Sequence record: OP172790
Reading direction: 5' to 3' (one strand)
From: Escherichia phage ECO319P1
DNA: 64,000 bases
Under the pieces are notes generated by a model, which did no database searches, was not told the DNA's origin, and saw only the letters and a list, made by a program, of their open reading frames with translations. How positions within the stretch are numbered: position 1 is the first letter of the stretch; each line of letters starts with the position of its first letter. This document shows, piece after piece, positions 929 through 60,027 of the stretch. Both the position numbers and the translations under genes were made by a program.

Positions 929-958
929 TTGACAGTGTGAAACAAGCTAGGTTAGAAT
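929..958 (+). promoter_or_regulatory. sigma70-like early promoter candidate
   Basis: TTGACA (929-934), 18 bp spacer, TAGAAT (953-958); upstream of the first plus-strand genes. Confidence 0.5.
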
Positions 959-1011
959 GAGCATCAAGTTAACAGAACAACGTTAACGAGTGAGAGACAA
1001 GAAATTATCTC

Positions 1012-1034
1012 TTATTATAATGTGCAATAATTAC
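1012..1034 (-). promoter_or_regulatory. phage promoter element TAATTATTGCACATTATAATAAG, inverted copy firing leftward
   Basis: reverse complement of 1012-1034 is identical to the element at 40331-40353. Confidence 0.5.
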
Positions 1035-1045
1035 GGGGTAACAGT

Positions 1046-1153
1046 ATGGTTACTTACAGCAATGAATTAACGTCTAAACAGATGTTAAAATCAGCCAACA
1101 AATTTTGGTTGATTGTAGGGTTGACAGTCGCCGCATTGATTGTTATCCTGTAA
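1046..1153 (+). CDS. small hydrophobic peptide (35 aa), hypothetical
   Basis: ATG 1046, stop 1151-1153, predicted TM segment FWLIVGLTVAALIVIL; not in ORF track (under 60 aa). Confidence 0.25.
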   Translation: MVTYSNELTSKQMLKSANKFWLIVGLTVAALIVIL

Positions 1154-6163: not shown

Positions 6164-6383
6164 ACTGCATAACGCAACGCTGTATAAACATGACGGTGGT
6201 GCATGGCTTGAAGGTCGTATTTATAACGACACCCATACCCACGGCAATCATCCGTTCCGTGATGGTACTCCAGTCACCACAACTAATGTGAGTGATGAAG
6301 TTCTGGATGGTGGCAACACCTATATGATTACCCGCAACACGACTTATAAAATGGTCGGTGTGGTTCGTGAGGTGGAGTTATGA
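6132..6383 (+). CDS. hypothetical protein
   Basis: 83 aa ORF, start uncertain. Confidence 0.35.
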   Translation: MESPQMNHHAELHNATLYKHDGGAWLEGRIYNDTHTHGNHPFRDGTPVTTTNVSDEVLDGGNTYMITRNTTYKMVGVVREVEL

Positions 6384-7267
6384 TTAAGCTGCTGCTTAAC
6401 AATGTGGAAATGCACTTGAATCGTAAGCGTTTCCCTGATATGGCCACCGGTATTGAAATCGTTGGTCAAGTTCCTGCCCGTGTTGAAGTGGCAACTATTG
6501 ACGCCCGCTTTGATGGAGTTGCAAGCCCAAATGACATGCTCTTTGACATTGCGCAAGCGGTTGATGTGGTGCGCTCTATTAACAGTACTGCGGTTATTCG
6601 TCTGTTTATTCCGTATCTCCCATACGCAAGACAAGACCGCCGCATGACCAAGCATGACGCTTTCAGTTTGAAAGTGTTCGGTAACCTGTTGAATTCATTG
6701 AAGATTAACACAATCATGTGCTTCGATGCTCATTCAGATGTTGCCGCAGGTATCATTGATAACCTGACTGTGATTGGTCAAGACCGAATCATGGGCATCA
6801 GTGAAGTCAGTCACGCATTGACTGTCAACGACCCGCTGATTGTTGCGCCTGATATGGGTGCTGTGAAGAAGATTCACAAAGTCTGTGCGAGCCTTAACCG
6901 TGCTGATTCACCGATTGTCATGGACAAAGAGCGTGAGCCGTCAACTGGTAAGATTGGTAATCATAAGATTATCTTTGGTACTGAGCGTGTTGATGGTCGT
7001 AACTGCTTGATTGTAGACGACATTTGTGATGGTGGTCGTACATTCATTAGCGCAGCGACTGAGTTAAAAGCTGCTGGGGCTGCAACAGTTAGTCTGTATG
7101 TAACTCACGGCATCTTCTCTCAGGGCATTGACGCTCTGTTAGGTGGTGGTATTGATAAAGTATTCACCACTGACTCTTTAATCGACACTGGAACTCTGGC
7201 ATCTGAAAAGGTGCGTGTGTTTAAGTGTAACGATATTCTTTCTGCCTTTTCGATGGGACGTATCTAA
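6380..7267 (+). CDS. adps: PRPP-synthetase-family kinase; candidate ADP-ribose pyrophosphokinase (Adps-like)
   Basis: Prs motifs PYARQDRR, DAHS and PRPP-binding loop LIVDDICDGGRTF; GAGGTGGAG RBS. Confidence 0.75.
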   Translation: MIKLLLNNVEMHLNRKRFPDMATGIEIVGQVPARVEVATIDARFDGVASPNDMLFDIAQAVDVVRSINSTAVIRLFIPYLPYARQDRRMTKHDAFSLKVFGNLLNSLKINTIMCFDAHSDVAAGIIDNLTVIGQDRIMGISEVSHALTVNDPLIVAPDMGAVKKIHKVCASLNRADSPIVMDKEREPSTGKIGNHKIIFGTERVDGRNCLIVDDICDGGRTFISAATELKAAGAATVSLYVTHGIFSQGIDALLGGGIDKVFTTDSLIDTGTLASEKVRVFKCNDILSAFSMGRI

Positions 7268-8932
7268 ATGAAACTGAATCCTCTGTTTGCTGTTGATGGT
7301 TATAAGTTCTCTCATGGCCCGGCCTATCCGAAAGGCACTAACAAGCTGTATGATGTGTTCACACCTCGCAGCGATAAGTATTTCAACAGTCCGTTCTTTA
7401 AGAACTTGGACATTCGTAGCCCGCTGATTTGGGTTGGTATGCAAACCTTCATTCAGCATTGGTTAGTGGACGAGTTCAATGAGAGCTTCTTCAAAGCTGA
7501 TAAAGGTGCTGCTGTTGCCGAATTCAAGGAATTCCTTGATGCTTACTTCGGCGCAGATGCTGTATCTACAGATAACATCGCTGGTCTTCATGACCTTGGT
7601 TATCTGCCACTTGTAATCAAGACGATTCCTGAAGGTTGCAATGTGGATATGAAGGTTGCGACCTGCACCTTCGTCAACACCCATGACGACTTCGCATGGC
7701 TGGTTGGCTATCTCGAAACTTTGGTCAGTGCTGAACTGTGGCCTGCTGCAACTGCTGCCACTATCGCAATGAACTACAAGGCAATCGGCACCTATTGGGC
7801 TGAACTGACTTGTGAAACCAAAGACCACCTGCTGTGGCAATTCCACGACTTCAGTGCTCGTGGTGACATGGGCATGTGGGCTTGTAGCTTAGTTGGCCTC
7901 GGTCACTTAGCATCTTTCCGTGGTACTGACTCGGTGTTCGCACTGAAACGTACAATGACGCACTATGCTGTGCCTAATGTTCCTGCGACTGGCTACCTGT
8001 ACGGTGGTTCTGTTCCGGCAACTGAGCACTCAGTAATGTGCATGGGAGAAAAAGTAAGTGAACTCGAAACGTTCTCGCGGCTCATTCAAGAAGTATATCC
8101 AACGGGAATCGTCAGTATTGTCTCGGACACATGGGATTACTGGAAGGTTATCACCGAATTCCTCCCGACCCTTGCTGACACGATTAATGAACGTGACGGC
8201 AAAGTGGTCATTCGTCCAGATTCTGGTGACCCTATTGATATCATTTGTGGACGCCTATTTACTGACCTGAATGGTTGTGAACATCTGGGTCATGTACAGA
8301 CTGTGCTCATGTCAAAACCGGGTGCTGTTGGTCTGTACAAAGGAACCTATTATGAGTTCAAACGTGCAAGCGAAGAACTTGTAGTTGTGCCTGAGCATGT
8401 AGTTGCTGGCTCAATCGAAATGATGTGGCGTACCTTTGGTGGCACCATCAATAAGAAAGGCTTCAAGGTTCTGAATCCGAAGATTGGCCTGATTTATGGT
8501 GATTCAATCACTATGGAACGTGCCGAAGAAATCTTTGCTCGCCTCGCCGCGAAGGATTTCGCATCTTCAAACGTTGTGCTGGGCATCGGTTCATACACTT
8601 ATCAGTATGTGACCCGTGACACCTTCGGCTTCGCCATGAAAGCAACTTATGGTGAAGTAGACGGCGTTGGTCGTGAAATCTTTAAAGACCCTGCGACTGA
8701 CGATGGCACTAAGAAGTCCGCCAAAGGTCTGCTGAAACACGCATTCATTGATGGCGTATGGACTCAGACAGACATGGCATCTGCTCGTGAAGAACAAGAC
8801 ACTGAGCTGTTGACAGTGTTCCGCGACGGTGTTGCATATCCACATTGCGACATTGAAGTTGTTCGTCAGCGTGTAGACGCTCTGGTCGATGGTCTGGTTT
8901 ACTATCGCATGAAGAAGGAAGGACTGATTTAA
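7268..8932 (+). CDS. namat: Nampt-family phosphoribosyltransferase; candidate nicotinamide ADP-ribose transferase (Namat-like)
   Basis: N-terminus LFAVDGYKFSHG typical of nicotinamide phosphoribosyltransferases; 554 aa; immediately follows the Prs-like gene. Confidence 0.75.
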   Translation: MKLNPLFAVDGYKFSHGPAYPKGTNKLYDVFTPRSDKYFNSPFFKNLDIRSPLIWVGMQTFIQHWLVDEFNESFFKADKGAAVAEFKEFLDAYFGADAVSTDNIAGLHDLGYLPLVIKTIPEGCNVDMKVATCTFVNTHDDFAWLVGYLETLVSAELWPAATAATIAMNYKAIGTYWAELTCETKDHLLWQFHDFSARGDMGMWACSLVGLGHLASFRGTDSVFALKRTMTHYAVPNVPATGYLYGGSVPATEHSVMCMGEKVSELETFSRLIQEVYPTGIVSIVSDTWDYWKVITEFLPTLADTINERDGKVVIRPDSGDPIDIICGRLFTDLNGCEHLGHVQTVLMSKPGAVGLYKGTYYEFKRASEELVVVPEHVVAGSIEMMWRTFGGTINKKGFKVLNPKIGLIYGDSITMERAEEIFARLAAKDFASSNVVLGIGSYTYQYVTRDTFGFAMKATYGEVDGVGREIFKDPATDDGTKKSAKGLLKHAFIDGVWTQTDMASAREEQDTELLTVFRDGVAYPHCDIEVVRQRVDALVDGLVYYRMKKEGLI

Positions 8933-9126
8933 TGTTCGAAGCCTTAAAGAAATTCTTTAACTGGCTTGACACAAAGACAGCAGACCGTGTGTTTGCTGTT
9001 CTCTTTGCTGTCTTCGCTGTCCTTGACTTGAGCAAAGGTCATTATTGGTCTGCATTGTTCGATGTAGTCCTGATGTTACTGAGCATCTGGTCACTCAAAC
9101 GCAAACTCGCTAAAGGTAAAAACTAA
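8932..9126 (+). CDS. small two-TM membrane protein (holin-like topology)
   Basis: two hydrophobic segments and charged C-terminus KRKLAKGKN. Confidence 0.4.
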   Translation: MFEALKKFFNWLDTKTADRVFAVLFAVFAVLDLSKGHYWSALFDVVLMLLSIWSLKRKLAKGKN

Positions 9127-10053
9127 ATGGAACATATCGCACTGTTCGGTGTGCTCGCTGTTGTACTCGTTCTGAGTATCGGCATTGACTTCTTTGGTCA
9201 CAAAGATGGTCACGAAATGTCGTTCAAAGAGAGTGCCATGTGGTCTCTGTTCTGGATTGCAATGGGCATTGGTGTTGGCGGCTTCATCTGGTTTGACTAC
9301 GGTGACGTTGCCGCTAGTGAGTACTTCGCTGGCTACGCAATGGAAAAGGCTCTGTCAATCGACAACCTGATGGTGTTCATGGCAATCTTTACGTTCTTCG
9401 GAATTAAAGATAGCGCTCGTGAGCATAAGATTCTGTTGTGGGGTATCGCTGGTGCATTGGTATTCCGTGGCATCTTTGTTGCTGCTGGTTCTGCCTTGTT
9501 CCATCTGTGGTGGCCTATTCAGGTATTCTTCGGTCTGGTCGTAATCTGGTCGGCTCGTGGCATCCTTGGTGGTGGAGATGATGATGAAGAAGTGGACTTT
9601 AGCCAGAAATGGTTTGTACGTGCAATCAAGAAGTTCTATCCTGTTAGCACTGACAATACAACTTCTAAGTTTTTCACTCGCATCGGCGGTCGTCGCGCTG
9701 TTACTGTTATGTTCCTGTGCTTGGTCACTATTGAACTGTGTGACGTCATGTTCTCGTTCGATAGCGTACCGGCTGTTATCGGCGTAACCAAAGAGCCTGC
9801 ACTTATCTACGCAGCCATGATTATGGCAGTGCTGGGTTTACGTGCTCTGTTCTTCGTGTTAGGTTCACTGATGAAGCACCTGACCCGTCTCGACTTCTTT
9901 GTTGCGATTGTTCTGGTGTTTGTTGGTGTCAAACTTATCGCGGCTCCGTTCGGCTATGAGATGGACGCTATTAGTAGTCTGTGTGTAGTCCTCGGATTGC
10001 TGGGCGCTGGTGTGGTAACATCTCTGGCTTTCCCAAAGCGTGAAAGTTACTAA
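9127..10053 (+). CDS. terC: TerC-family integral membrane protein
   Basis: multi-TM with EKALSIDNLMVFMAIF signature; contains 12-mer copy 4. Confidence 0.7.
   Translation: MEHIALFGVLAVVLVLSIGIDFFGHKDGHEMSFKESAMWSLFWIAMGIGVGGFIWFDYGDVAASEYFAGYAMEKALSIDNLMVFMAIFTFFGIKDSAREHKILLWGIAGALVFRGIFVAAGSALFHLWWPIQVFFGLVVIWSARGILGGGDDDEEVDFSQKWFVRAIKKFYPVSTDNTTSKFFTRIGGRRAVTVMFLCLVTIELCDVMFSFDSVPAVIGVTKEPALIYAAMIMAVLGLRALFFVLGSLMKHLTRLDFFVAIVLVFVGVKLIAAPFGYEMDAISSLCVVLGLLGAGVVTSLAFPKRESY
9296..9307 (+). repeat. copy 4 of 12-mer ACTACGGTGACG
   Basis: exact match, read as D-Y-G-D. Confidence 0.9.
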
Positions 10054-10110: not shown

Positions 10111-10317
10111 ATGAAATATATGTTATTGATTCTTATAGCTTTTAATTGTTATGGGTATCAAACTGACGAAACTGATATGCTGTTCAGTGCTGAGGATTAT
10201 GCACAAGAGCGTCATGTTCAGCGAGTTAAGCCTCACAAAGAAGACAAGAAAGTTATTGTTGTAACTCAAGAGGAACTCGACCGAGTCCTCAAATCAACCA
10301 AAGAAGGAAGTAAATAA
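10111..10317 (+). CDS. small secreted or membrane protein
   Basis: start at ATG 10111 after GGAGGT RBS; N-terminal hydrophobic segment. Confidence 0.45.
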   Translation: MKYMLLILIAFNCYGYQTDETDMLFSAEDYAQERHVQRVKPHKEDKKVIVVTQEELDRVLKSTKEGSK

Positions 10318-10892
10318 TGGCTGTTGTTCTCCGTAAAAACGCATCCCTGAACCTGTCCAAATCTGTAGCGGCTCTGACCACTTACCGTTTCGGCCTGTCT
10401 TGGGACGAAAGCGCTGACCTCGATGCTGTTGCAATGGTTGTTGATGAAAACGGTAAGCTGTTCCCGCCTGTTGAAAACAACATGGCATACTACGGCAACT
10501 GCACCGCTAACAAATTCGGCAATGCTGAAAACCCTGTTCCAGGTCTGACTCACTCCGGTGATGCTCGTGACGGCTCTGCTGCTGGCGACGACGAAACCAT
10601 CGTTATCGACACCACTAAGCTTCAGAAAGACCGCATCATCATTGCTGTAACCTCTTACAGTGAAAATGGCCCGGTTCCGTTCGCTGCTTCCGTTAATCCG
10701 GTTGCTAAACTGTACGACGACAAAGGCAATGTACTGGTCGAAGTTAAGCTGGACGAAAACGTTGCATTCAGCACCGCTGTTGAGTTCGTAGAGATTGCGA
10801 AAGTTAATGGCGACTGGACTGTAACCAACCTGACCAACCCGGCTGGTAACTCCGAAAACGGCCTGACCGACCTGCTGGCTGCACGTAGCTAA
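10317..10892 (+). CDS. terD: TerD-family protein
   Basis: GLSWDESADLDA and HSGDARDG...GDDE motifs align with E. coli TerD as recalled; length 191 aa. Confidence 0.75.
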   Translation: MAVVLRKNASLNLSKSVAALTTYRFGLSWDESADLDAVAMVVDENGKLFPPVENNMAYYGNCTANKFGNAENPVPGLTHSGDARDGSAAGDDETIVIDTTKLQKDRIIIAVTSYSENGPVPFAASVNPVAKLYDDKGNVLVEVKLDENVAFSTAVEFVEIAKVNGDWTVTNLTNPAGNSENGLTDLLAARS

Positions 10893-11187: not shown

Positions 11188-11283
11188 ATGCAACTTCCTA
11201 CTGGATTCATAGTGCTCCTTGTTATCTTGTATACACTGAATGCACTGCAACAAGAAGGATATCTTTCATGGCTCTCATTCTGA
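11188..11283 (+). CDS. small hydrophobic leader peptide (31 aa)
   Basis: strong AAGGAG RBS straight after the promoter element; overlaps the start of the following TerD-family gene. Confidence 0.3.
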   Translation: MQLPTGFIVLLVILYTLNALQQEGYLSWLSF

Positions 11284-11927
11284 AGAAGAACCAATCCACT
11301 GACCTCGTATCTGATAAAGGTACTCCGGTTCTGAACCTCACTGTTGGTGCTAATTGGGGTATGATTAGCAAAACTGGTGATAGCAAAGCGGCTGGCTTCT
11401 TCAACCGTATGGCATCTGCTCTGGGTGCTGGAGATACAGTGAAAACCGCTGTTGACCTTGACCTGTCAATGGTCTTCGCTAACGCCAAAGGCGAACTGGT
11501 AGACATGTGCTACTACGGCAATAAGCGTCTGTTCAGTGGTGCAGTTCTGCACTCTGGTGACGACCTCGTTGGTGACGACGAGCAGAACGAAGATGATAAC
11601 GAACTGATTAAGTTCGAAGGCATGAAGGTTCCGTTCGATGTTACCACTGTGTACGTTGTACTGAACTCCTTCCGCCATCAGATGTTCGATGAAATCCCAT
11701 ACATCGGCATCTCTTTCTACGAAGGTCTGGTGAACAAGGGCTCCAAAGGTCTGCGATTCGCTGAGGCTCGTGTTGAGAAAGAGAAAGAAGCTGCTGGCAA
11801 AGAGTGCTGCATCCTCGCTAAGATTGTCCGTACTGGCAAAGGCTGGAACGTGACTCCGCTGTTCGACTACACCTCGGACACCAATCTGCGCGACCTTGCT
11901 CGCACTGCAATTCGTAAGCACGGCTAA
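11268..11927 (+). CDS. TerD-family paralog
   Basis: VDLDLS and HSGDDLVGDDE motifs. Confidence 0.65.
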   Translation: MALILKKNQSTDLVSDKGTPVLNLTVGANWGMISKTGDSKAAGFFNRMASALGAGDTVKTAVDLDLSMVFANAKGELVDMCYYGNKRLFSGAVLHSGDDLVGDDEQNEDDNELIKFEGMKVPFDVTTVYVVLNSFRHQMFDEIPYIGISFYEGLVNKGSKGLRFAEARVEKEKEAAGKECCILAKIVRTGKGWNVTPLFDYTSDTNLRDLARTAIRKHG

Positions 11928-11986
11928 TCGTGCCAAGCCCACTTTAGGATAGAGGTGGGCAACAACTATAAGGAGAGTAATCCCCG

Positions 11987-12412
11987 ATGAGTTGGTTTAT
12001 GTGCTGGTTAGCACTAACTCTTAACATTTACACGGAGGCAGGTGGAGAGGGTGAGCAAGGTATGAGGATGATTGCTGATGTAGCGGTCACTCGTACTACG
12101 CACAAAGATTACCCAGATAACATTAGCAAAGTTATTCTTCAACCGGGTCAATTTTCTTGGACTTATAACTTAAAGTCGAGGTCTGAGAAAGGATTAGTTG
12201 CTTATAATAAGCGTCTCTTAAAGTCTAAGAGAATGACTAATCCAAAAGAAAGAGAAGCATATGCCATAGCGATGAAAGTCGCGTACAGAGCTTTACAGCC
12301 GGGGTATAAACCCAAGTACAGGTATACTCACTTCTACAGTGGGACAGACAAGCCCAAGTGGGCTAAAAACAAACGTGCCGTCAAACACGGCAACCATTAC
12401 TTTATCAAATAA
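11987..12412 (+). CDS. SleB-like cell wall hydrolase
   Basis: NIYTEAGGEGEQG...VAVTRTTH...QPGQFSW pattern of the Hydrolase_2 family; no signal peptide. Confidence 0.55.
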   Translation: MSWFMCWLALTLNIYTEAGGEGEQGMRMIADVAVTRTTHKDYPDNISKVILQPGQFSWTYNLKSRSEKGLVAYNKRLLKSKRMTNPKEREAYAIAMKVAYRALQPGYKPKYRYTHFYSGTDKPKWAKNKRAVKHGNHYFIK

Positions 12413-12421
12413 GGATTCACA

Positions 12422-12634
12422 ATGTTCTCCTCCAACAAACCAACCTTCTCCTCGGCAATGAAGATGTTCACCAAAGCTCAGGAAGAACTGAAAGCTGCTG
12501 GTGAAGTGAATGCTGCCGAACTGGCAGAAGCCGAAGCCGCTGTAGCTGCTGCGAAAGAAGAACGTGATAACATCAATCGCGTTACCTCTTTCTTCGACAA
12601 CCTGCTGGGTAAAGGCCCGGAGTTGACTAAGTAA
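12422..12634 (+). CDS. hypothetical Ala-rich small protein
   Basis: 70 aa ORF. Confidence 0.4.
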   Translation: MFSSNKPTFSSAMKMFTKAQEELKAAGEVNAAELAEAEAAVAAAKEERDNINRVTSFFDNLLGKGPELTK

Positions 12635-13182
12635 TGCGTAAAGTTGCAATCATTGGAGCCTGTATCGGCTCCTTGTTCCTTCTGAGTGGTTGTGATGATA
12701 ACACTTCCAAGCTGACCGCTGACCAACAGTTCCAACTGAAACAGATGGAAATGCAGCAAGCTGAGAAGATGCGCAACCAACGTCATGAGTTGGAAATGGC
12801 TCGTGCCATGAATCCTGCTCCTGTTATTCAATCTGAGACTCGCTATGTTGAGTCAGAGCCACAGGTGATTTACCGCGATGTTCCAGCACAACCTGCACCT
12901 CAACCCCATTCTGTCAGCCCTGATAGCTATGGGTACAGTAGCAGCAATAGTGATTCTGGGAGCGGTATTGGCTCACACGTCGCAACGGCAGCCGTAGGTG
13001 CTGCTGCTGGCTATTATGCTGGCAAGTACACCTCAACGCCGAAAGGCCAGCAACAAGTACAGACGATGAAGTCTAAGACTAAATCAATGTACGACACTGG
13101 TAAGAAGAAAGCCTACACAGGCTATCGCTTTACCAAAAGCAAAACAACCTCAGCGTATCGCTCATTCAAGAAACGAAAGTAA
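12634..13182 (+). CDS. lipoprotein with Gly/Ala-zipper segment
   Basis: lipobox LLSGC; Pro-rich linker; basic C-terminus. Confidence 0.5.
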   Translation: MRKVAIIGACIGSLFLLSGCDDNTSKLTADQQFQLKQMEMQQAEKMRNQRHELEMARAMNPAPVIQSETRYVESEPQVIYRDVPAQPAPQPHSVSPDSYGYSSSNSDSGSGIGSHVATAAVGAAAGYYAGKYTSTPKGQQQVQTMKSKTKSMYDTGKKKAYTGYRFTKSKTTSAYRSFKKRK

Positions 13183-13194
13183 CGGAGATTCAAC

Positions 13195-13563
13195 ATGAAC
13201 CTGATTGAAGTACTGAAAGACCAACTGGATAAAGAAGGCGCGATTCTGGACAACGCAAAGCGTGACGATAAAAACGTTCGTGCTGCGATTCAAGTCTCGA
13301 AAGAGATTCGTAAAGTGCTGGCTGAAAACATTCGCGGCATCAAAGCGCAGATTAAAGAGTCTGACCGTGCATCGAATGGTGCTAAGTCAAGCCTGCTGCG
13401 TCGCTCTCTGGCGTTCTTCCGTGAACAGTACAACGACCTGTTCGAAGAAATCTACATGCTTCGTGCTCAGAAGGGCATGATTACTTCCTATCTGAAAACT
13501 CAGACGGAACTGGTTGTGTCGCTGGATGCCGAATGGGAGAAAGCGAAACGTGAAGCTCAGTAA
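13195..13563 (+). CDS. hypothetical coiled-coil protein
   Basis: 122 aa charged helical ORF. Confidence 0.45.
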   Translation: MNLIEVLKDQLDKEGAILDNAKRDDKNVRAAIQVSKEIRKVLAENIRGIKAQIKESDRASNGAKSSLLRRSLAFFREQYNDLFEEIYMLRAQKGMITSYLKTQTELVVSLDAEWEKAKREAQ

Positions 13564-13798
13564 GTTCAACATCTTTAAGTTGTGCTTTGTAGCTGTGTTG
13601 GCGGCCTTAATGGCTGCCTTCTTCTACTTCCGTGGCATCGACTTCAAAGACTGTCTCATGGCGAAGTATGACCTTCAGCGTGAAACAACCTTCCGCATCC
13701 TGACTGGTGCTTGCACTACGAAGGGCAAAGACGGAAGTCTGATTTATGTTAAGCAACTTCGTGGCTTCGGCGATGATGTTGTTGACGACCATCAATAA
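13526..13798 (+). CDS. small membrane protein
   Basis: TM segment LCFVAVLAALMAAFFYF; start uncertain (TTG 13514, ATG 13526 or GTG 13550). Confidence 0.3.
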   Translation: MPNGRKRNVKLSKFNIFKLCFVAVLAALMAAFFYFRGIDFKDCLMAKYDLQRETTFRILTGACTTKGKDGSLIYVKQLRGFGDDVVDDHQ

Positions 13799-39751: not shown

Positions 39752-39951
39752 GTCTTGCAAAAGAGTTCATGGACTTTATCGTTGACAATGAAATACCACT
39801 ATCAGACAGGGCTGCTGCCCTGATTGGTAAGCTTGGTGTTGCTGACGAAGAACTTGAGTGGCTTTCCTGTCTCAATGCTGCTGGTGTTGATAATTGGGAA
39901 GGCTGTGACTATGCTGCTGACTTGCTGAGGGAGAGAACAGATGAATGTTAA
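39739..39951 (+). CDS. hypothetical protein
   Basis: 70 aa ORF. Confidence 0.3.
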   Translation: MHNMSLAKEFMDFIVDNEIPLSDRAAALIGKLGVADEELEWLSCLNAAGVDNWEGCDYAADLLRERTDEC

Positions 39952-40333
39952 ACTAAGTAAGAAAGGTCAGGCTCTTCTGGCTACTCGTAAACAGGCACTT
40001 CAAGATGTGATTAATAAGTCCTTTGAGAAGATGCCGTTCGATATCACAATTCTCGCAAGTACAGTGCGTACTGAAGAGGAGCAACGAGCTAACATAGCCA
40101 AAGGTGTGTCTTGGACAATGAAGTCTAAGCACCTCACTGGAGAGGCCGTGGACATGGCTCCTTATCCGGTTGACTGGAACAACCTTGAACGGTTTGTACA
40201 GATGGCTGAAGTGGTTCTGACTACTGCCAAAGAAATGGGTATTCCCATTGTCTGGGGTGGTACTTGGAAAGAAACCACTGAAGGTTGGAAACAGAATAAA
40301 CGGTTCGATGGGCCTCATTTCGAACTGAAATAA
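39941..40333 (+). CDS. peptidase M15 (VanY-like) endolysin
   Basis: SKHLTGEAVD and DGPHFE zinc-binding motifs. Confidence 0.7.
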   Translation: MNVKLSKKGQALLATRKQALQDVINKSFEKMPFDITILASTVRTEEEQRANIAKGVSWTMKSKHLTGEAVDMAPYPVDWNNLERFVQMAEVVLTTAKEMGIPIVWGGTWKETTEGWKQNKRFDGPHFELK

Positions 40334-46706: not shown

Positions 46707-46732
46707 AAATAATTATTGCACATTATAATAGA
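46707..46732 (+). promoter_or_regulatory. phage promoter element (AATAATTATTGCACATTATAATAGAG)
   Basis: conserved element copy. Confidence 0.55.
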
Positions 46733-46772
46733 GTTCTTTCTTAACACAATTCAAAAGGATTTGTCAATACTT

Positions 46773-47393
46773 ATGTTAAAATTTATTTGGTCTATTATAG
46801 CCACTGTAGGTGTACTTGCTTCCTGTTACATATCTGATGCTTCTCCTATCATCACAACAGCTTCTGTCATTGGTGTCTTATTTGTTCTTGGTGTAGCTTT
46901 CAAGAATGCTTGGACAAACCTGTTAGGTGCTGCATTAACGCTGATATATGGATACCTTTCTTACAGTGCAGGTTATTATGCTAACGCACTGATAAATGTG
47001 ACAGTGCTATTCCCACTACAGTTAATAGCTTTCTGGTTCTGGAAGAAGACAGAAGGTAAGACGTTTACATTAACTGAAGATTGGAAGAAAGCAATCATAG
47101 TGTTATCTGGTATAGGTATCCTCATTTCCTGCACACTGACTAAATCCTATGGTTCACATCTTTGGCTTCATGATGGAATCTCAGCGGTATTAGTTATTGT
47201 TGCTACTTTCCTCCTGATGTTAAAAGTGAAAGAACAGTGGTATGCTTGGATTCCTTATAATGCACTTGAAGTGTTTATGTGGTTCATGGCTGCTTCTTTA
47301 AATCCTGATATGTTGGCTATCTTTGTGATGCGTAGCATCTTCTTTGCTAACTCTCTGATTGGTGCTTACGAGTGGTTCGGTAAGAAATCTTAA
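46773..47393 (+). CDS. pnuC: PnuC-like nicotinamide riboside transporter candidate
   Basis: multi-TM protein of about 206 aa with W...N..G and LINVT segments; start at ATG 46773, not the TTG inside the promoter element. Confidence 0.5.
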   Translation: MLKFIWSIIATVGVLASCYISDASPIITTASVIGVLFVLGVAFKNAWTNLLGAALTLIYGYLSYSAGYYANALINVTVLFPLQLIAFWFWKKTEGKTFTLTEDWKKAIIVLSGIGILISCTLTKSYGSHLWLHDGISAVLVIVATFLLMLKVKEQWYAWIPYNALEVFMWFMAASLNPDMLAIFVMRSIFFANSLIGAYEWFGKKS

Positions 47394-47626: not shown

Positions 47627-48064
47627 ATGGCAAGAAAGTTTAAGAAGCGCTATGCACCAAAGAAGCAGAATCTAATCAAGGGAACACCTTATGATTCACT
47701 GTTCGAGAAGGAAATTCACGAGAGGCTCCTTCAAGACGCACGTTTTCACGATAAATCGGATAGAGTTGACTATAAAGTTCCCCATTATTACGAACCCGAC
47801 TTCGTGCTTGAAAAGGACGGTAAGACCTTTTATATTGAGACGAAAGGGAGATTTCGTGATTCGAGCGAGGCTAGGAAATATCTATTTGTTCGGGAGAATT
47901 TGCCGGAAGATGCAGAGCTAGTCTTCATTTGGGAGAAAGCCAACACTGTATTCCCGTTCGCTAAGAAGCGCAAAGACGGAACTAAGGCGACTCACGGAGA
48001 GTGGGCAGACAAGAATGGTTTTCGTAATTGGGTACAGACGGAGTTTACAGTGGAGAAATTATGA
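47627..48064 (+). CDS. endonuclease I-like Holliday junction resolvase (T7 gp3-like)
   Basis: YYEPDFVLEKDGKTFYIETKG PD-(D/E)xK core. Confidence 0.65.
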   Translation: MARKFKKRYAPKKQNLIKGTPYDSLFEKEIHERLLQDARFHDKSDRVDYKVPHYYEPDFVLEKDGKTFYIETKGRFRDSSEARKYLFVRENLPEDAELVFIWEKANTVFPFAKKRKDGTKATHGEWADKNGFRNWVQTEFTVEKL

Positions 48065-48504
48065 TTAAATATATTGTCGCTGTTCTTGCAATAGTGGCAT
48101 CATACACAGGGACATTCTATCTGGGAGTAAGTCACGGTGTGATTGAAACTCAGAATGGGATGTTAAAGAAGAATACTGAACAGTTAGAAGATTTGATTTC
48201 TAATGTTCAAACAGTTGACACGAAACTGAATAACAATGCTATGGTTCAAGAAGAAATCAAAGCGAAGCTCAGTTTGAGACAGAATGAAGTAACGAAGGAG
48301 GTTATTAAATATGCTCAAAGGCCTGATGCTAACGATGTTGTGCTTGATGATGATTGGGTGCGGGTCTACAACGATTCCAACGCCTCAGCAGGAACCGGAG
48401 ATACCAGTTCCAGCCAAGTACAAGGTCAAACCGGAAGAGCCAGTAGCGATGCCTCTAAGCCCCTCAAAATTGAAGTCTCTGGAAGTAGTAAAGGACAACA
48501 ATGA
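48061..48504 (+). CDS. i-spanin (Rz-like)
   Basis: N-terminal TM anchor, coiled-coil periplasmic region; embedded o-spanin ORF. Confidence 0.55.
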   Translation: MIKYIVAVLAIVASYTGTFYLGVSHGVIETQNGMLKKNTEQLEDLISNVQTVDTKLNNNAMVQEEIKAKLSLRQNEVTKEVIKYAQRPDANDVVLDDDWVRVYNDSNASAGTGDTSSSQVQGQTGRASSDASKPLKIEVSGSSKGQQ

Positions 48505-48580
48505 TGCTTGGGCACGGCTGAGACAGCGATATCTTGATTTGCTCGAATGGACTGAATCTGTTAAGCATACCAGAAAATAA
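48311..48580 (+). CDS. o-spanin (Rz1-like lipoprotein), overlapping the i-spanin
   Basis: signal with MMIGC lipobox-like site, Pro-rich mature region. Confidence 0.5.
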   Translation: MLKGLMLTMLCLMMIGCGSTTIPTPQQEPEIPVPAKYKVKPEEPVAMPLSPSKLKSLEVVKDNNDAWARLRQRYLDLLEWTESVKHTRK

Positions 48581-58900: not shown

Positions 58901-59779
58901 TTATGCAGTACGACGGAACATGTAAACCACAATATATGGTTGGATGTTGTTGTGTTTTTGGTTACCACCCGTGGTCTGTACACCACCAGTAATCTGGAGT
59001 GAGTGTTCATGAGCACCATCAGTTGTAGTACGATAAATACCACCATTACCACCGTGAGAACGAGCATCATAGTTAATGTAACGTTCTTTATAGTTAAATG
59101 CTTCCAAACCATCATCACCCATGAACAAGTGATAGTGAGCACCGTTAGAAAGTGCACGACCACCAATATCATGTGGGTGTGAGTGAGCAGGCATTTCACC
59201 AGTAGTTAGTGTGTGATAATATTTACCACCTTGTGCCAGAACAGTGTTGTAGTTAATAGAATCAGTACCATCGTTACCAACACCATAACCAACAAGAACA
59301 CGACCCGGAGCAAACTGCTGCCAAGTACCGAAACCAAACAGGTCGGCTGGGTTTGTTGCAGTCGCTGAAATGTAGATAGAACCTACAGGCCATGATGCCA
59401 CCATACCACCATTACGTTCCAGATAACGACGAGATACCGCATCATCAAGACCAGCATCACCAGCACGAGGCAGTGGGACACCAGTTACAACGTTTTTATT
59501 GGTATTGATACCATCTTTGTTGAAGTTAATGGTCTTAGAAGTACCAGTCATTAAGAAAGTTTTGTTACAGCTAACGGAGTCAGCATCGAACTTCAAGTTT
59601 GCGTCTAACAAGTTCATAGTATCAGAACTGATAGTAAGCTTCTTATTAAAGCTTGAGAAAGTGTTAGTCAGAGTGGTTTTGATAAGACGAATGTGGTCGT
59701 CACCCTCTTTGATTAAGTCACCGCTCAGAGGCCAAGAAGTATTAAGTTCGCTGACAAATCCAGCCTTCTCTACCGTCAT
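58901..59779 (-). CDS. tail fiber protein
   Basis: Gly-rich; HSHPH motif near C-terminus. Confidence 0.5.
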   Translation of the reverse strand: MTVEKAGFVSELNTSWPLSGDLIKEGDDHIRLIKTTLTNTFSSFNKKLTISSDTMNLLDANLKFDADSVSCNKTFLMTGTSKTINFNKDGINTNKNVVTGVPLPRAGDAGLDDAVSRRYLERNGGMVASWPVGSIYISATATNPADLFGFGTWQQFAPGRVLVGYGVGNDGTDSINYNTVLAQGGKYYHTLTTGEMPAHSHPHDIGGRALSNGAHYHLFMGDDGLEAFNYKERYINYDARSHGGNGGIYRTTTDGAHEHSLQITGGVQTTGGNQKHNNIQPYIVVYMFRRTA

Positions 59780-60027
59780 TTATGTTTCTCCCGTTGGTTC
59801 AAATTATTTACTAAATCAGAGAGTGTTTTAATAGTTTCTGATTGAACTGCCTGAGTCTTATCAATCCTATTCAGAATCTCCCTCGTTGTGTTAACGATGC
59901 TCCCCTGTTCAGCCTGTGTGCTTTTGAGAATCTGTACATCCACATATGTGTTTATACCGACACCAATCGAAGCGACAGATAACGAGGTGGCTACACCGAT
60001 AAGAATATTTCTTAGTGCGTCTTCCAT
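59776..60027 (-). CDS. small single-TM protein
   Basis: TM segment ILIGVATSLSVASIGVGI. Confidence 0.4.
   Translation of the reverse strand: MEDALRNILIGVATSLSVASIGVGINTYVDVQILKSTQAEQGSIVNTTREILNRIDKTQAVQSETIKTLSDLVNNLNQREKHK

Follow-up and report, generated by a model that had tools for sequence, protein, structure and literature searches.

The 64,000-nucleotide stretch of Escherichia phage ECO319P1 DNA analysed here (sequence record OP172790; hereafter the window) carries at positions 11987-12412 of its + strand an open reading frame (ORF) for a leaderless, single-domain Hydrolase_2 protein of the SleB/CwlJ fold, which is predicted to be a peptidoglycan hydrolase and may serve as a second endolysin beside a separate M15 enzyme. 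The ORF starts with ATG, and its product has 141 amino acids, a mass of 16.5 kDa and an isoelectric point (pI) of 10. Over the 8 kb around the gene, the window is 89% identical to Cronobacter phage vB_CsaP_GAP52 (hereafter GAP52) and 88% identical to phage A24, both members of the genus Crifsvirus (Grimontviridae), phiEco32/7-11-like podophages with elongated heads. Each of these phages encodes an orthologue with 87% protein identity that is annotated as an endolysin: A24 gp025, and GAP52 gp023 (YP_006987741), a RefSeq 'endolysin' whose note refers to the 'putative endolysin' AEK82026 of Salmonella phage 7-11. The annotation of GAP52 thereby contains two 'endolysin' genes (gp023 and the M15 gene gp069) and an Rz/Rz1 pair, and no holin. 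The window gene is the orthologue of an already annotated GAP52 gene, and no new kind of system is represented.

The start of the gene is well delimited (Table 1). A Shine-Dalgarno-like AAGGAGAG at 11970-11977 lies 5' of the ATG, and an in-frame TAA at 11978-11980, 9 nt upstream of the ORF, excludes an N-terminal extension or leader peptide. In alignments, the 26-nt initiation region CTATAAGGAGRGTAAYCCCCGATGAG is kept even in orthologues with only 57-58% protein identity. Its GGAG is able to pair with the CCCC that precedes the AUG, and such pairing may throttle expression of the hydrolase. Across the seven loci compared, every lineage has a stem-loop just 5' of the gene, and its sequence differs between lineages; in 7-11, L010 and L016 it is joined to a T-run and resembles an intrinsic terminator, whereas the T-run is absent in the window and in GAP52. 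The coding sequence itself is under purifying selection, with a ratio of non-synonymous to synonymous substitution rates (dN/dS) of 0.19-0.21 relative to GAP52 and A24.

The product matches the Pfam family PF07486 (Hydrolase_2) over profile positions 1-99 of 100, with an E-value of 1.6e-18 and a score of 67.6 bits (gathering cut-off, 27 bits), and it also matches PHROG 938, 'endolysin' (E 2.5e-16). An AlphaFold2 model built with 19 close homologues has a predicted local distance difference test (pLDDT) score of 90.2 and a predicted template modelling (pTM) score of 0.84, and in the PDB it significantly matches no structures other than 4f55 and 4fet, both catalytic domains of SleB (Foldseek E ~1e-4, probability 1.0, TM-score 0.59-0.67). 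A sequence search of the PDB alone was marginal (E 0.016), and the family assignment is therefore based on the Pfam match together with the fold match. The motif YTEAGGEG of the hydrolase aligns with the catalytic-Glu motif YGESRGE of SleB, and thus the Y-x-E-[AS]-x-G-E signature is present at the end of helix 1. Glu17 (E17), the acidic residue of this motif, is invariant in the 19 close homologues, and when 47 diverse homologues are aligned, no position except this one and Arg36 is invariant. The QFSW motif is strictly retained, as is the catalytic Glu. Judged from these alignments, Glu17 is probably the catalytic residue. A helical insertion of ~20 residues (residues ~62-84) is absent from SleB and from many homologues.

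An initial reading of this DNA, made without database searches (the sequence-only reading), had described the gene as a SleB-like hydrolase. The ORF was found exactly as predicted, and the family match, the SleB fold and the retained catalytic Glu all agree with the description. However, the name applies at the level of the catalytic-domain family only, and the protein is not a true SleB: it scores 26.2 bits against the SleB equivalog model NCBIfam TIGR02869, for which the cut-off is 236.5 bits, and no YpeB/PepSY match was found with Pfam among the neighbouring genes. By analogy with SleB, the enzyme is presumably a lytic transglycosylase. A pair of Cys residues is conserved in the family, one in helix 1 and the other before the VVxQ strand, and probably forms a periplasmic disulfide in exported members. 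The subclade of the window protein and GAP52 retains Cys6, and the partner position (S47 in the window product) is now Ser, Gly or Thr; both Cys residues are retained in other leaderless clade members (the proteins compared were P0009, P0013, P0016 and P0017).

The absence of a signal peptide, also proposed in the sequence-only reading, was upheld by several lines of evidence besides the upstream TAA. The protein has no basic n-region, its best 19-residue Kyte-Doolittle window is 0.84, well under the transmembrane level, and residues 3-18 are modelled by AlphaFold2 as helix 1 of the domain, equivalent to helix 1 of SleB. The N-terminus, MSWFMCWLALTLNIYTE, is almost invariant within the clade. 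Secreted or signal-anchor-release (SAR) endolysins have an N-terminal signal peptide or a weakly hydrophobic transmembrane domain of ~16-22 residues, with a basic n-region; here, the hydrophobic stretch covers ~13-15 residues and no basic residue precedes it. A membrane-spanning or SAR-type N-terminus is thus unsupported by the hydropathy windows and by the AlphaFold model, and is retained below as a rival of low probability.

Leaderless proteins are a minority among the viral members of this family. A profile search of 1.84 billion proteins returned 8,925 matches at E <= 1e-3, the top representatives of which comprise ~60 leaderless proteins and 94 with extensions, and homologues are present in 874 phage records. 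The IMG/VR loci were collected with an alignment of intermediate diversity; a narrow alignment gave only phage 7-11. Among the resulting 79 homologous ORFs, 70 begin with a hydrophobic segment of the export type, which may be a signal peptide, a lipobox or a signal anchor rich in Gly, Ala and Ser, and only ~6 are truly leaderless. Sec signal peptides are found in the T5.083-type protein of T5-like phages (MKAALLLVAALTFSFSSQA, followed by SH) and also in the Sugarlandvirus protein, Vequintavirus APECc02 gp001, Certrevirus CR3_087 and the Chaseviridae protein of Erwinia phage EaPF7. The leaderless forms include the GAP52/7-11/009 clade, phiEco32 gp117, SU10_0116 and CwlQ of Vibrio phage Vp670. 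The two types also differ at positions -16 to -10 before the catalytic Glu, where the mean Kyte-Doolittle value is +1.38 in leaderless and -0.76 in exported members, the latter having 2.3 charged residues there (Mann-Whitney p ~1e-21, for sequences that are not independent). That the family divides into leaderless and exported forms, distinguished by the hydrophobicity of their N-termini, is the sole mildly new point of the analysis.

Two further arrangements of the domain were observed among phages. Many Hydrolase_2 proteins of uncultured phages begin with a Gly/Ala/Ser/Thr-rich signal anchor that resembles a SAR domain, for instance MSKTINIASGLLTMSGLAAVAVTLTMM (IMG/VR loci L055-L064, L070, L074-L075, L085-L087 and others); there may therefore be many undescribed endolysins of the SAR type that have a Hydrolase_2 catalytic domain. 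Additionally, the domain occurs within phage proteins of >1000 residues (in Atu_ph03, Palo and an uncultured phage), with a probable role in entry.

With respect to the timing of expression, all genes from ~1 kb to 48.6 kb of the window are on the + strand, and the hydrolase gene lies ~11 kb downstream of a cluster of sigma-70-type promoter matches at the head of this block. In phage 7-11, two validated sigma-70 promoters are located at the genome end, and long polycistronic early transcripts span almost half of the genome (PMC8948821). The cluster in the window corresponds to these two validated early promoters. The late promoters of 7-11 (GTAAtg-N16-aCTA) are read by the phage sigma factor gp47 and include the leftward P69 and P48 (PMC8948821). 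In the window, a match to this motif at the position expected for P69 lies between the hydrolase gene and the M15 gene, and no match occurs before 26 kb. The number of late-motif matches is not above chance (6, with 3.8 expected), and only the position, in agreement with P69 of 7-11, was used as evidence. The GenBank protein accessions of 7-11 run parallel to its gene numbers (the sigma factor gp47 is AEK81962); therefore, the SleB-like AEK82026 would be gp111, in the early block, and the M15 protein AEK81965 would be gp50, between P69 and P48. On this basis, that is, promoter position and comparison with 7-11, the SleB-like gene is predicted to be early and the M15 gene late.

The other lysis genes of the window are dispersed. 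The M15 endolysin named in the sequence-only reading was recovered at the same coordinates by Pfam and PHROG (Table 1); it is 98.5% identical to GAP52 gp069, is conserved across the Grimontviridae, and its gene is flanked by DNA polymerase and SSB/sigma genes. The genes of the spanin pair come last in the + strand block, where they immediately follow a gene for an endonuclease, 8 kb from the M15 gene. The hydrolase gene is separated from the M15 gene by 28 kb and from the spanin genes by 36 kb, so its description as far from the lysis genes is accurate in terms of distance. However, the argument is weak: there is no lysis cassette, the M15 and spanin genes being already scattered, and therefore the distance of the hydrolase gene from them says little. 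In the structural proteins of the window, including a protein of 1303 amino acids, no peptidoglycan-hydrolase domain was detected by Pfam; therefore, an entry lysin is unaccounted for.

Small membrane proteins were also compared. With its two hydrophobic segments and basic C-terminal end (KRKLAKGKN), a 64-amino-acid protein encoded directly upstream of TerC resembles a class II holin in topology, and its only match is to a PHROG of unknown function (E 1e-4). A single-transmembrane protein of 83 amino acids (59776-60027, - strand) belongs to a PHROG annotated 'virion structural protein'. None of the small window proteins compared resembles CR3_086, the CR3 counterpart of the CB7 holin candidate.

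The TerC gene and two TerD genes lie directly upstream of the hydrolase gene. The sequence-only reading accordingly placed the gene in a Ter region, which is correct for the window; however, the adjacency is not conserved, and a functional link between the hydrolase and the Ter genes was rejected, as TerC and TerD are absent beside the orthologue in phage 009 and contig L010. Downstream, the order is conserved in all relatives: the hydrolase is followed by a helical protein of 62-70 amino acids, a coiled-coil protein, two unknown proteins of 290-366 amino acids and a phiEco32-type COOH-NH2 ligase. In each of the relatives examined, the gene for the helical protein (MFSS..PTFASAMKTFTKAQEEL) comes after that for the hydrolase, in most cases immediately, and a role as partner of the hydrolase is speculative.

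Several further neighbours were noted. The start of the gene for a predicted 182-amino-acid lipoprotein overlaps the stop of the 70-amino-acid protein gene. The lipobox of this lipoprotein is LLSGC, and the Asp residues at +2 and +3 form the classical signal for retention in the inner membrane; the protein also contains a segment rich in Gly and Ala (AAVGAAAGYYAG) and ends in a highly basic tail of 50 residues. It is present in GAP52 and A24 (88-89% identity) and absent from the same position in 009, L010 and L011, and it may be a superinfection-exclusion or envelope-modifying protein. An 82-amino-acid type II membrane protein, encoded 1.1 kb downstream of the hydrolase gene, has a single transmembrane segment between a basic N-terminus and a C-terminal domain of ~55 amino acids with two conserved Cys residues, and is conserved in A24 and 009. 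By homology to the GAP52 annotation, a set of NAD+ salvage genes (ribose-phosphate pyrophosphokinase, nicotinamide phosphoribosyltransferase and a PnuC-like transporter) and, downstream of the hydrolase gene, a phiEco32-type amidoligase/GATase/ATP-grasp cluster were also recognised.

Table 1. Features of the window discussed in the text, in order of position.
Feature	Position	Strand	Basis
Three strong sigma-70-type promoter matches (10-11 of 12 positions), head of the + strand early block	929..1149	+	Promoter scan
NAD+ salvage genes	6380-8932 and 46716-47393	+	Homology to GAP52 annotation
64-amino-acid two-transmembrane protein, early block	8932-9126	+	
TerC	9127-10053	+	Pfam scan
TerD (first)	10317-10892	+	Pfam scan
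TerD (second)	11268-11927	+	Pfam scan
Hairpin GCCCAC-N12-GTGGGC between TerD and hydrolase genes, no T-run	11937..11960	+	Fold z-score -2.0; seven loci compared
Translation initiation region of the hydrolase	11970..11986	+	Sequence and alignments
Leaderless single-domain Hydrolase_2 (SleB/CwlJ-fold) predicted peptidoglycan hydrolase	11987..12412	+	ORF, Pfam, AlphaFold2/Foldseek, E17 invariance, dN/dS
70-amino-acid helical protein, phrog_26686	12422..12634	+	PHROG E 2.9e-37; synteny in GAP52, A24, 009, L010, L011
182-amino-acid predicted lipoprotein	12634-13182	+	
82-amino-acid type II membrane protein	13550-13798	+	
Late-promoter motif match at the position expected for P69	35757..35782	+	Motif search; P69/P48 data; synteny via GAP52 gp059
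M15 endolysin (L-Ala-D-Glu peptidase type)	39941..40333	+	Peptidase_M15_4 E 1.9e-7; phrog_465 endolysin E 7.8e-45; tblastn
i-spanin (Rz-like), N-terminal transmembrane segment and coiled-coil periplasmic domain	48061..48504	+	phrog_8821 E 3.6e-37; transmembrane scan
o-spanin (Rz1-like lipoprotein, lipobox MIGC), other frame, overlaps i-spanin gene	48311..48580	+	phrog_1267 E 6.3e-13; sequence

The sequence-only reading had left the choice between an alternative endolysin and a virion-associated or entry-related lysin. Of these, an alternative endolysin appears the better supported, given the leaderless muralytic fold, the intact Glu, the coexistence with M15 and spanins, and the precedent of CwlQ. 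Specifically, the hydrolase is proposed, with a probability of about 0.5, to be a cytoplasmic, holin-released second endolysin that cuts glycan strands and complements M15. As in canonical endolysins, a predicted muralytic catalytic domain is present without a secretion signal. The gene would be transcribed within the long sigma-70-driven early operon, and the enzyme would accumulate in the cytoplasm, where it would be harmless. Permeabilisation of the inner membrane by a phage holin would then allow it to reach the vegetative murein, where it would contribute to lysis by cutting the glycan backbone while the late M15 peptidase cuts the L-Ala-D-Glu stem bond, and the Rz/Rz1 spanins would subsequently disrupt the outer membrane.

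For holin dependence and a contribution to lysis, the proposal draws on analogy with CwlQ of Vp670, a leaderless PF07486 protein and the closest precedent from experiment. When expressed alone in E. coli or Vibrio, CwlQ had no effect on growth or morphology, but it made holin-induced damage much worse and turned it into cell bursting (Luo et al. 2018, PMC6180450). The signal-peptide-bearing CB7_83 was reported to be toxic in E. coli, with the data not shown in that paper (PMC7344957), which fits muralytic activity of the domain once it is in the periplasm. T5-like phages and CB7 likewise combine an M15 peptidase with a Hydrolase_2 protein encoded by a separate gene, as published reports have noted (PMC11180984, PMC3326045, PMC7344957).

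Several observations weigh against a second endolysin. Unlike a canonical endolysin gene, the hydrolase gene is neither beside a holin gene nor in a late lysis cassette, and a transmembrane scan of all ORFs together with PHROG searches recognised no holin anywhere in the window, including beside the hydrolase gene. The M15 protein is better conserved relative to GAP52 than the hydrolase (98.5% versus 87% identity); therefore, M15 is probably the main enzyme and sufficient for lysis. SleB requires cortex peptidoglycan with muramic-delta-lactam, and Enterobacteria lack this. Because export signals are built into most of the phage homologues, holin-dependent release is not the usual mode of the family in phages. 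For stand-alone phage Hydrolase_2 proteins, no report of muralytic activity of a purified enzyme or of a knock-out phenotype was found. Additionally, leaderless members are typically encoded among DNA-metabolism or early genes and not in lysis cassettes, a location that could point to a non-lytic role.

Such a non-lytic or dispensable role is the first alternative to be considered. The protein could bind or regulate a host or phage factor in the cytoplasm, comparable to the action of T7 lysozyme on T7 RNA polymerase, or act on a glycan-containing metabolite made by the neighbouring amidoligase/GATase cluster, or its gene could be accessory and almost neutral. Host-takeover and metabolic genes surround it in the early block, its downstream neighbourhood is conserved through the COOH-NH2 ligase in all relatives, and other leaderless members are found among recombination/DNA-metabolism genes. 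Its weaker constraint relative to its neighbours (dN/dS 0.2, versus 0.03-0.07) and the loss of the second Cys of the family pair in the subclade would also be consistent with this explanation. However, neither the catalytic Glu nor the QFSW motif varies, and therefore enzymatic activity appears to be selected. Moreover, no substrate other than peptidoglycan is known for the fold, and peptidoglycan does not occur as a polymer in the cytoplasm; none of the results indicates an interaction partner or alternative substrate. A non-lytic role is thus considered unlikely.

A second alternative is self-export in the manner of SAR endolysins. The hydrophobic helix of residues 2-16 would act as a weak, uncleaved signal anchor, holding the enzyme tethered and inactive with Glu17 at the membrane interface, and the murein would be remodelled or pre-weakened without a canonical holin. 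This would match the role presumed for the signal-peptide-bearing homologues encoded in early regions of T5-like and rV5-like phages. It would also be in line with the Sec signals of the T5-like, Sugarlandvirus, Vequintavirus, Certrevirus and Chaseviridae homologues (several of which are encoded in early regions), with the export-type segments of 70 of the 79 IMG/VR homologues, including Gly/Ala/Ser-rich anchors, and with the near-invariant N-terminus and the hydrophobicity of leaderless members before the catalytic Glu. However, the stretch is short and lacks an N-terminal positive charge, its best hydropathy window is low, and AlphaFold2 places it in helix 1, buried in the domain. In addition, phiEco32 gp117 begins even later, at MLTLTIYYE, and CwlQ, which has a similar N-terminus, left growth and morphology unchanged in the absence of a holin, whereas the known SAR endolysins need no holin for lysis. 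Self-export of this kind is therefore somewhat less plausible again than a non-lytic role.

A more specific form of this idea is that the leaderless Hydrolase_2 proteins of virulent enterobacterial phages constitute a distinct class, in which the hydrophobic helix 1 ending in the catalytic Glu would tether an early-made enzyme in an inactive state, and release would refold helix 1 into the active site, possibly under the control of the 70-amino-acid downstream protein. This is put forward as a conjecture with little chance of being correct. If true, a SAR-like switch inside the catalytic domain would provide for early-loaded lysis or murein remodelling that is holin-independent or triggered by a pinholin.

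The remaining possibility, a virion-associated or entry lysin that is packaged and digests murein locally during DNA ejection, would fill the apparent gap among the structural proteins and has parallels in the very large Hydrolase_2 proteins of other phages, but is most improbable: the gene is in the early sigma-70 block with no late-promoter motif nearby; the 7-11 orthologue falls in the early block that was defined by experiment in that phage; neither late expression, nor a location in a structural module, nor fusion to a structural protein was found, the product being a stand-alone protein of 141 amino acids without a structural or anchoring domain; SU10_0116 was not among the 34 proteins of a polyethylene glycol-concentrated SU10 preparation, although several early/middle contaminants were detected; and T5-like and rV5-like homologues have cleavable Sec signals, with which cytoplasmic packaging is incompatible.

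The combination of a canonical endolysin with a distant SleB-fold gene has already been described in the literature and is widespread: a stand-alone Hydrolase_2 gene accompanies a canonical endolysin in about 870 sequenced phage genomes, among them the T5-like, rV5-like, phiEco32-like and GAP52-like groups. If the leaderless form is a true second endolysin, it would be a small, very basic (pI 10) glycan-cleaving enzyme, and enzybiotic cocktails directed at Cronobacter and other Enterobacteriaceae could use it as a complement to M15 peptidases. Otherwise, its early expression would point to an unexplored early murein-directed function.

Compared with known systems, the window protein has the catalytic fold and the position of the catalytic Glu in common with Bacillus SleB/CwlJ (4f55, 4fet). 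It differs from SleB in its extra helical insertion and in the absence of a signal peptide, of a peptidoglycan-binding domain at the N-terminus and of a YpeB partner; moreover, unlike in the Bacillus context of SleB, the host of the phage makes no muramic-delta-lactam cortex. The T5.083-type proteins of T5-like phages, named 'cell wall hydrolase SleB' (for example DT57C_000061 and AKFV33 ORF81), and those of Vequintavirinae (APECc02 gp001, CR3_087 and CB7_83) share the catalytic domain, with ~30-34% identity. As in the window, their genes belong to early or non-structural regions and lie far away from the gene for the canonical endolysin, which in T5-like phages and CB7 is likewise an M15 L-Ala-D-Glu peptidase. 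However, these proteins have cleavable Sec signals and reach the periplasm unaided, which the window protein, on present evidence, cannot.

The Kuravirus proteins phiEco32 gp117 and SU10_0116 are leaderless homologues (34% identity) encoded in the early region of related C3-morphotype podophages, and are the best match to the hydrolase model (TM-score 0.72/0.79) in BFVD, a library of predicted viral protein structures. They have a shorter N-terminus, starting MLTLTIYYEAGNQ, the second acidic residue of the motif is replaced, and these phages have a late lysozyme and holin in place of M15. CwlQ of Vp670 is, like the window protein, a leaderless single-domain Hydrolase_2 protein (~130 amino acids) in which helix 1 is hydrophobic and has the catalytic Glu at its end; its N-terminus is of the same type (MFVEAILWLSLNVHHEARGE), and its gene is away from the holin gene. 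However, it aligns in the N-terminal half only (33% identity, residues 8-77), lacks the ~20-residue insertion of the GAP52 clade, and is the only recognisable endolysin of Vp670, whereas ECO319P1 also has the conserved M15 enzyme.

The closest counterparts are the orthologues GAP52 gp023, A24 gp025 and 7-11 AEK82026, with 87% identity for the first two and ~57% for the best match on a presumed 7-11 contig. All share the length of 141 amino acids, the leaderless N-terminus, a locus between the NAD-salvage/Ter genes and the COOH-NH2 ligase cluster, and a separate M15 endolysin. ECO319P1 differs from GAP52 and A24 by ~11% in nucleotide sequence, and no functional difference between the orthologues is apparent.

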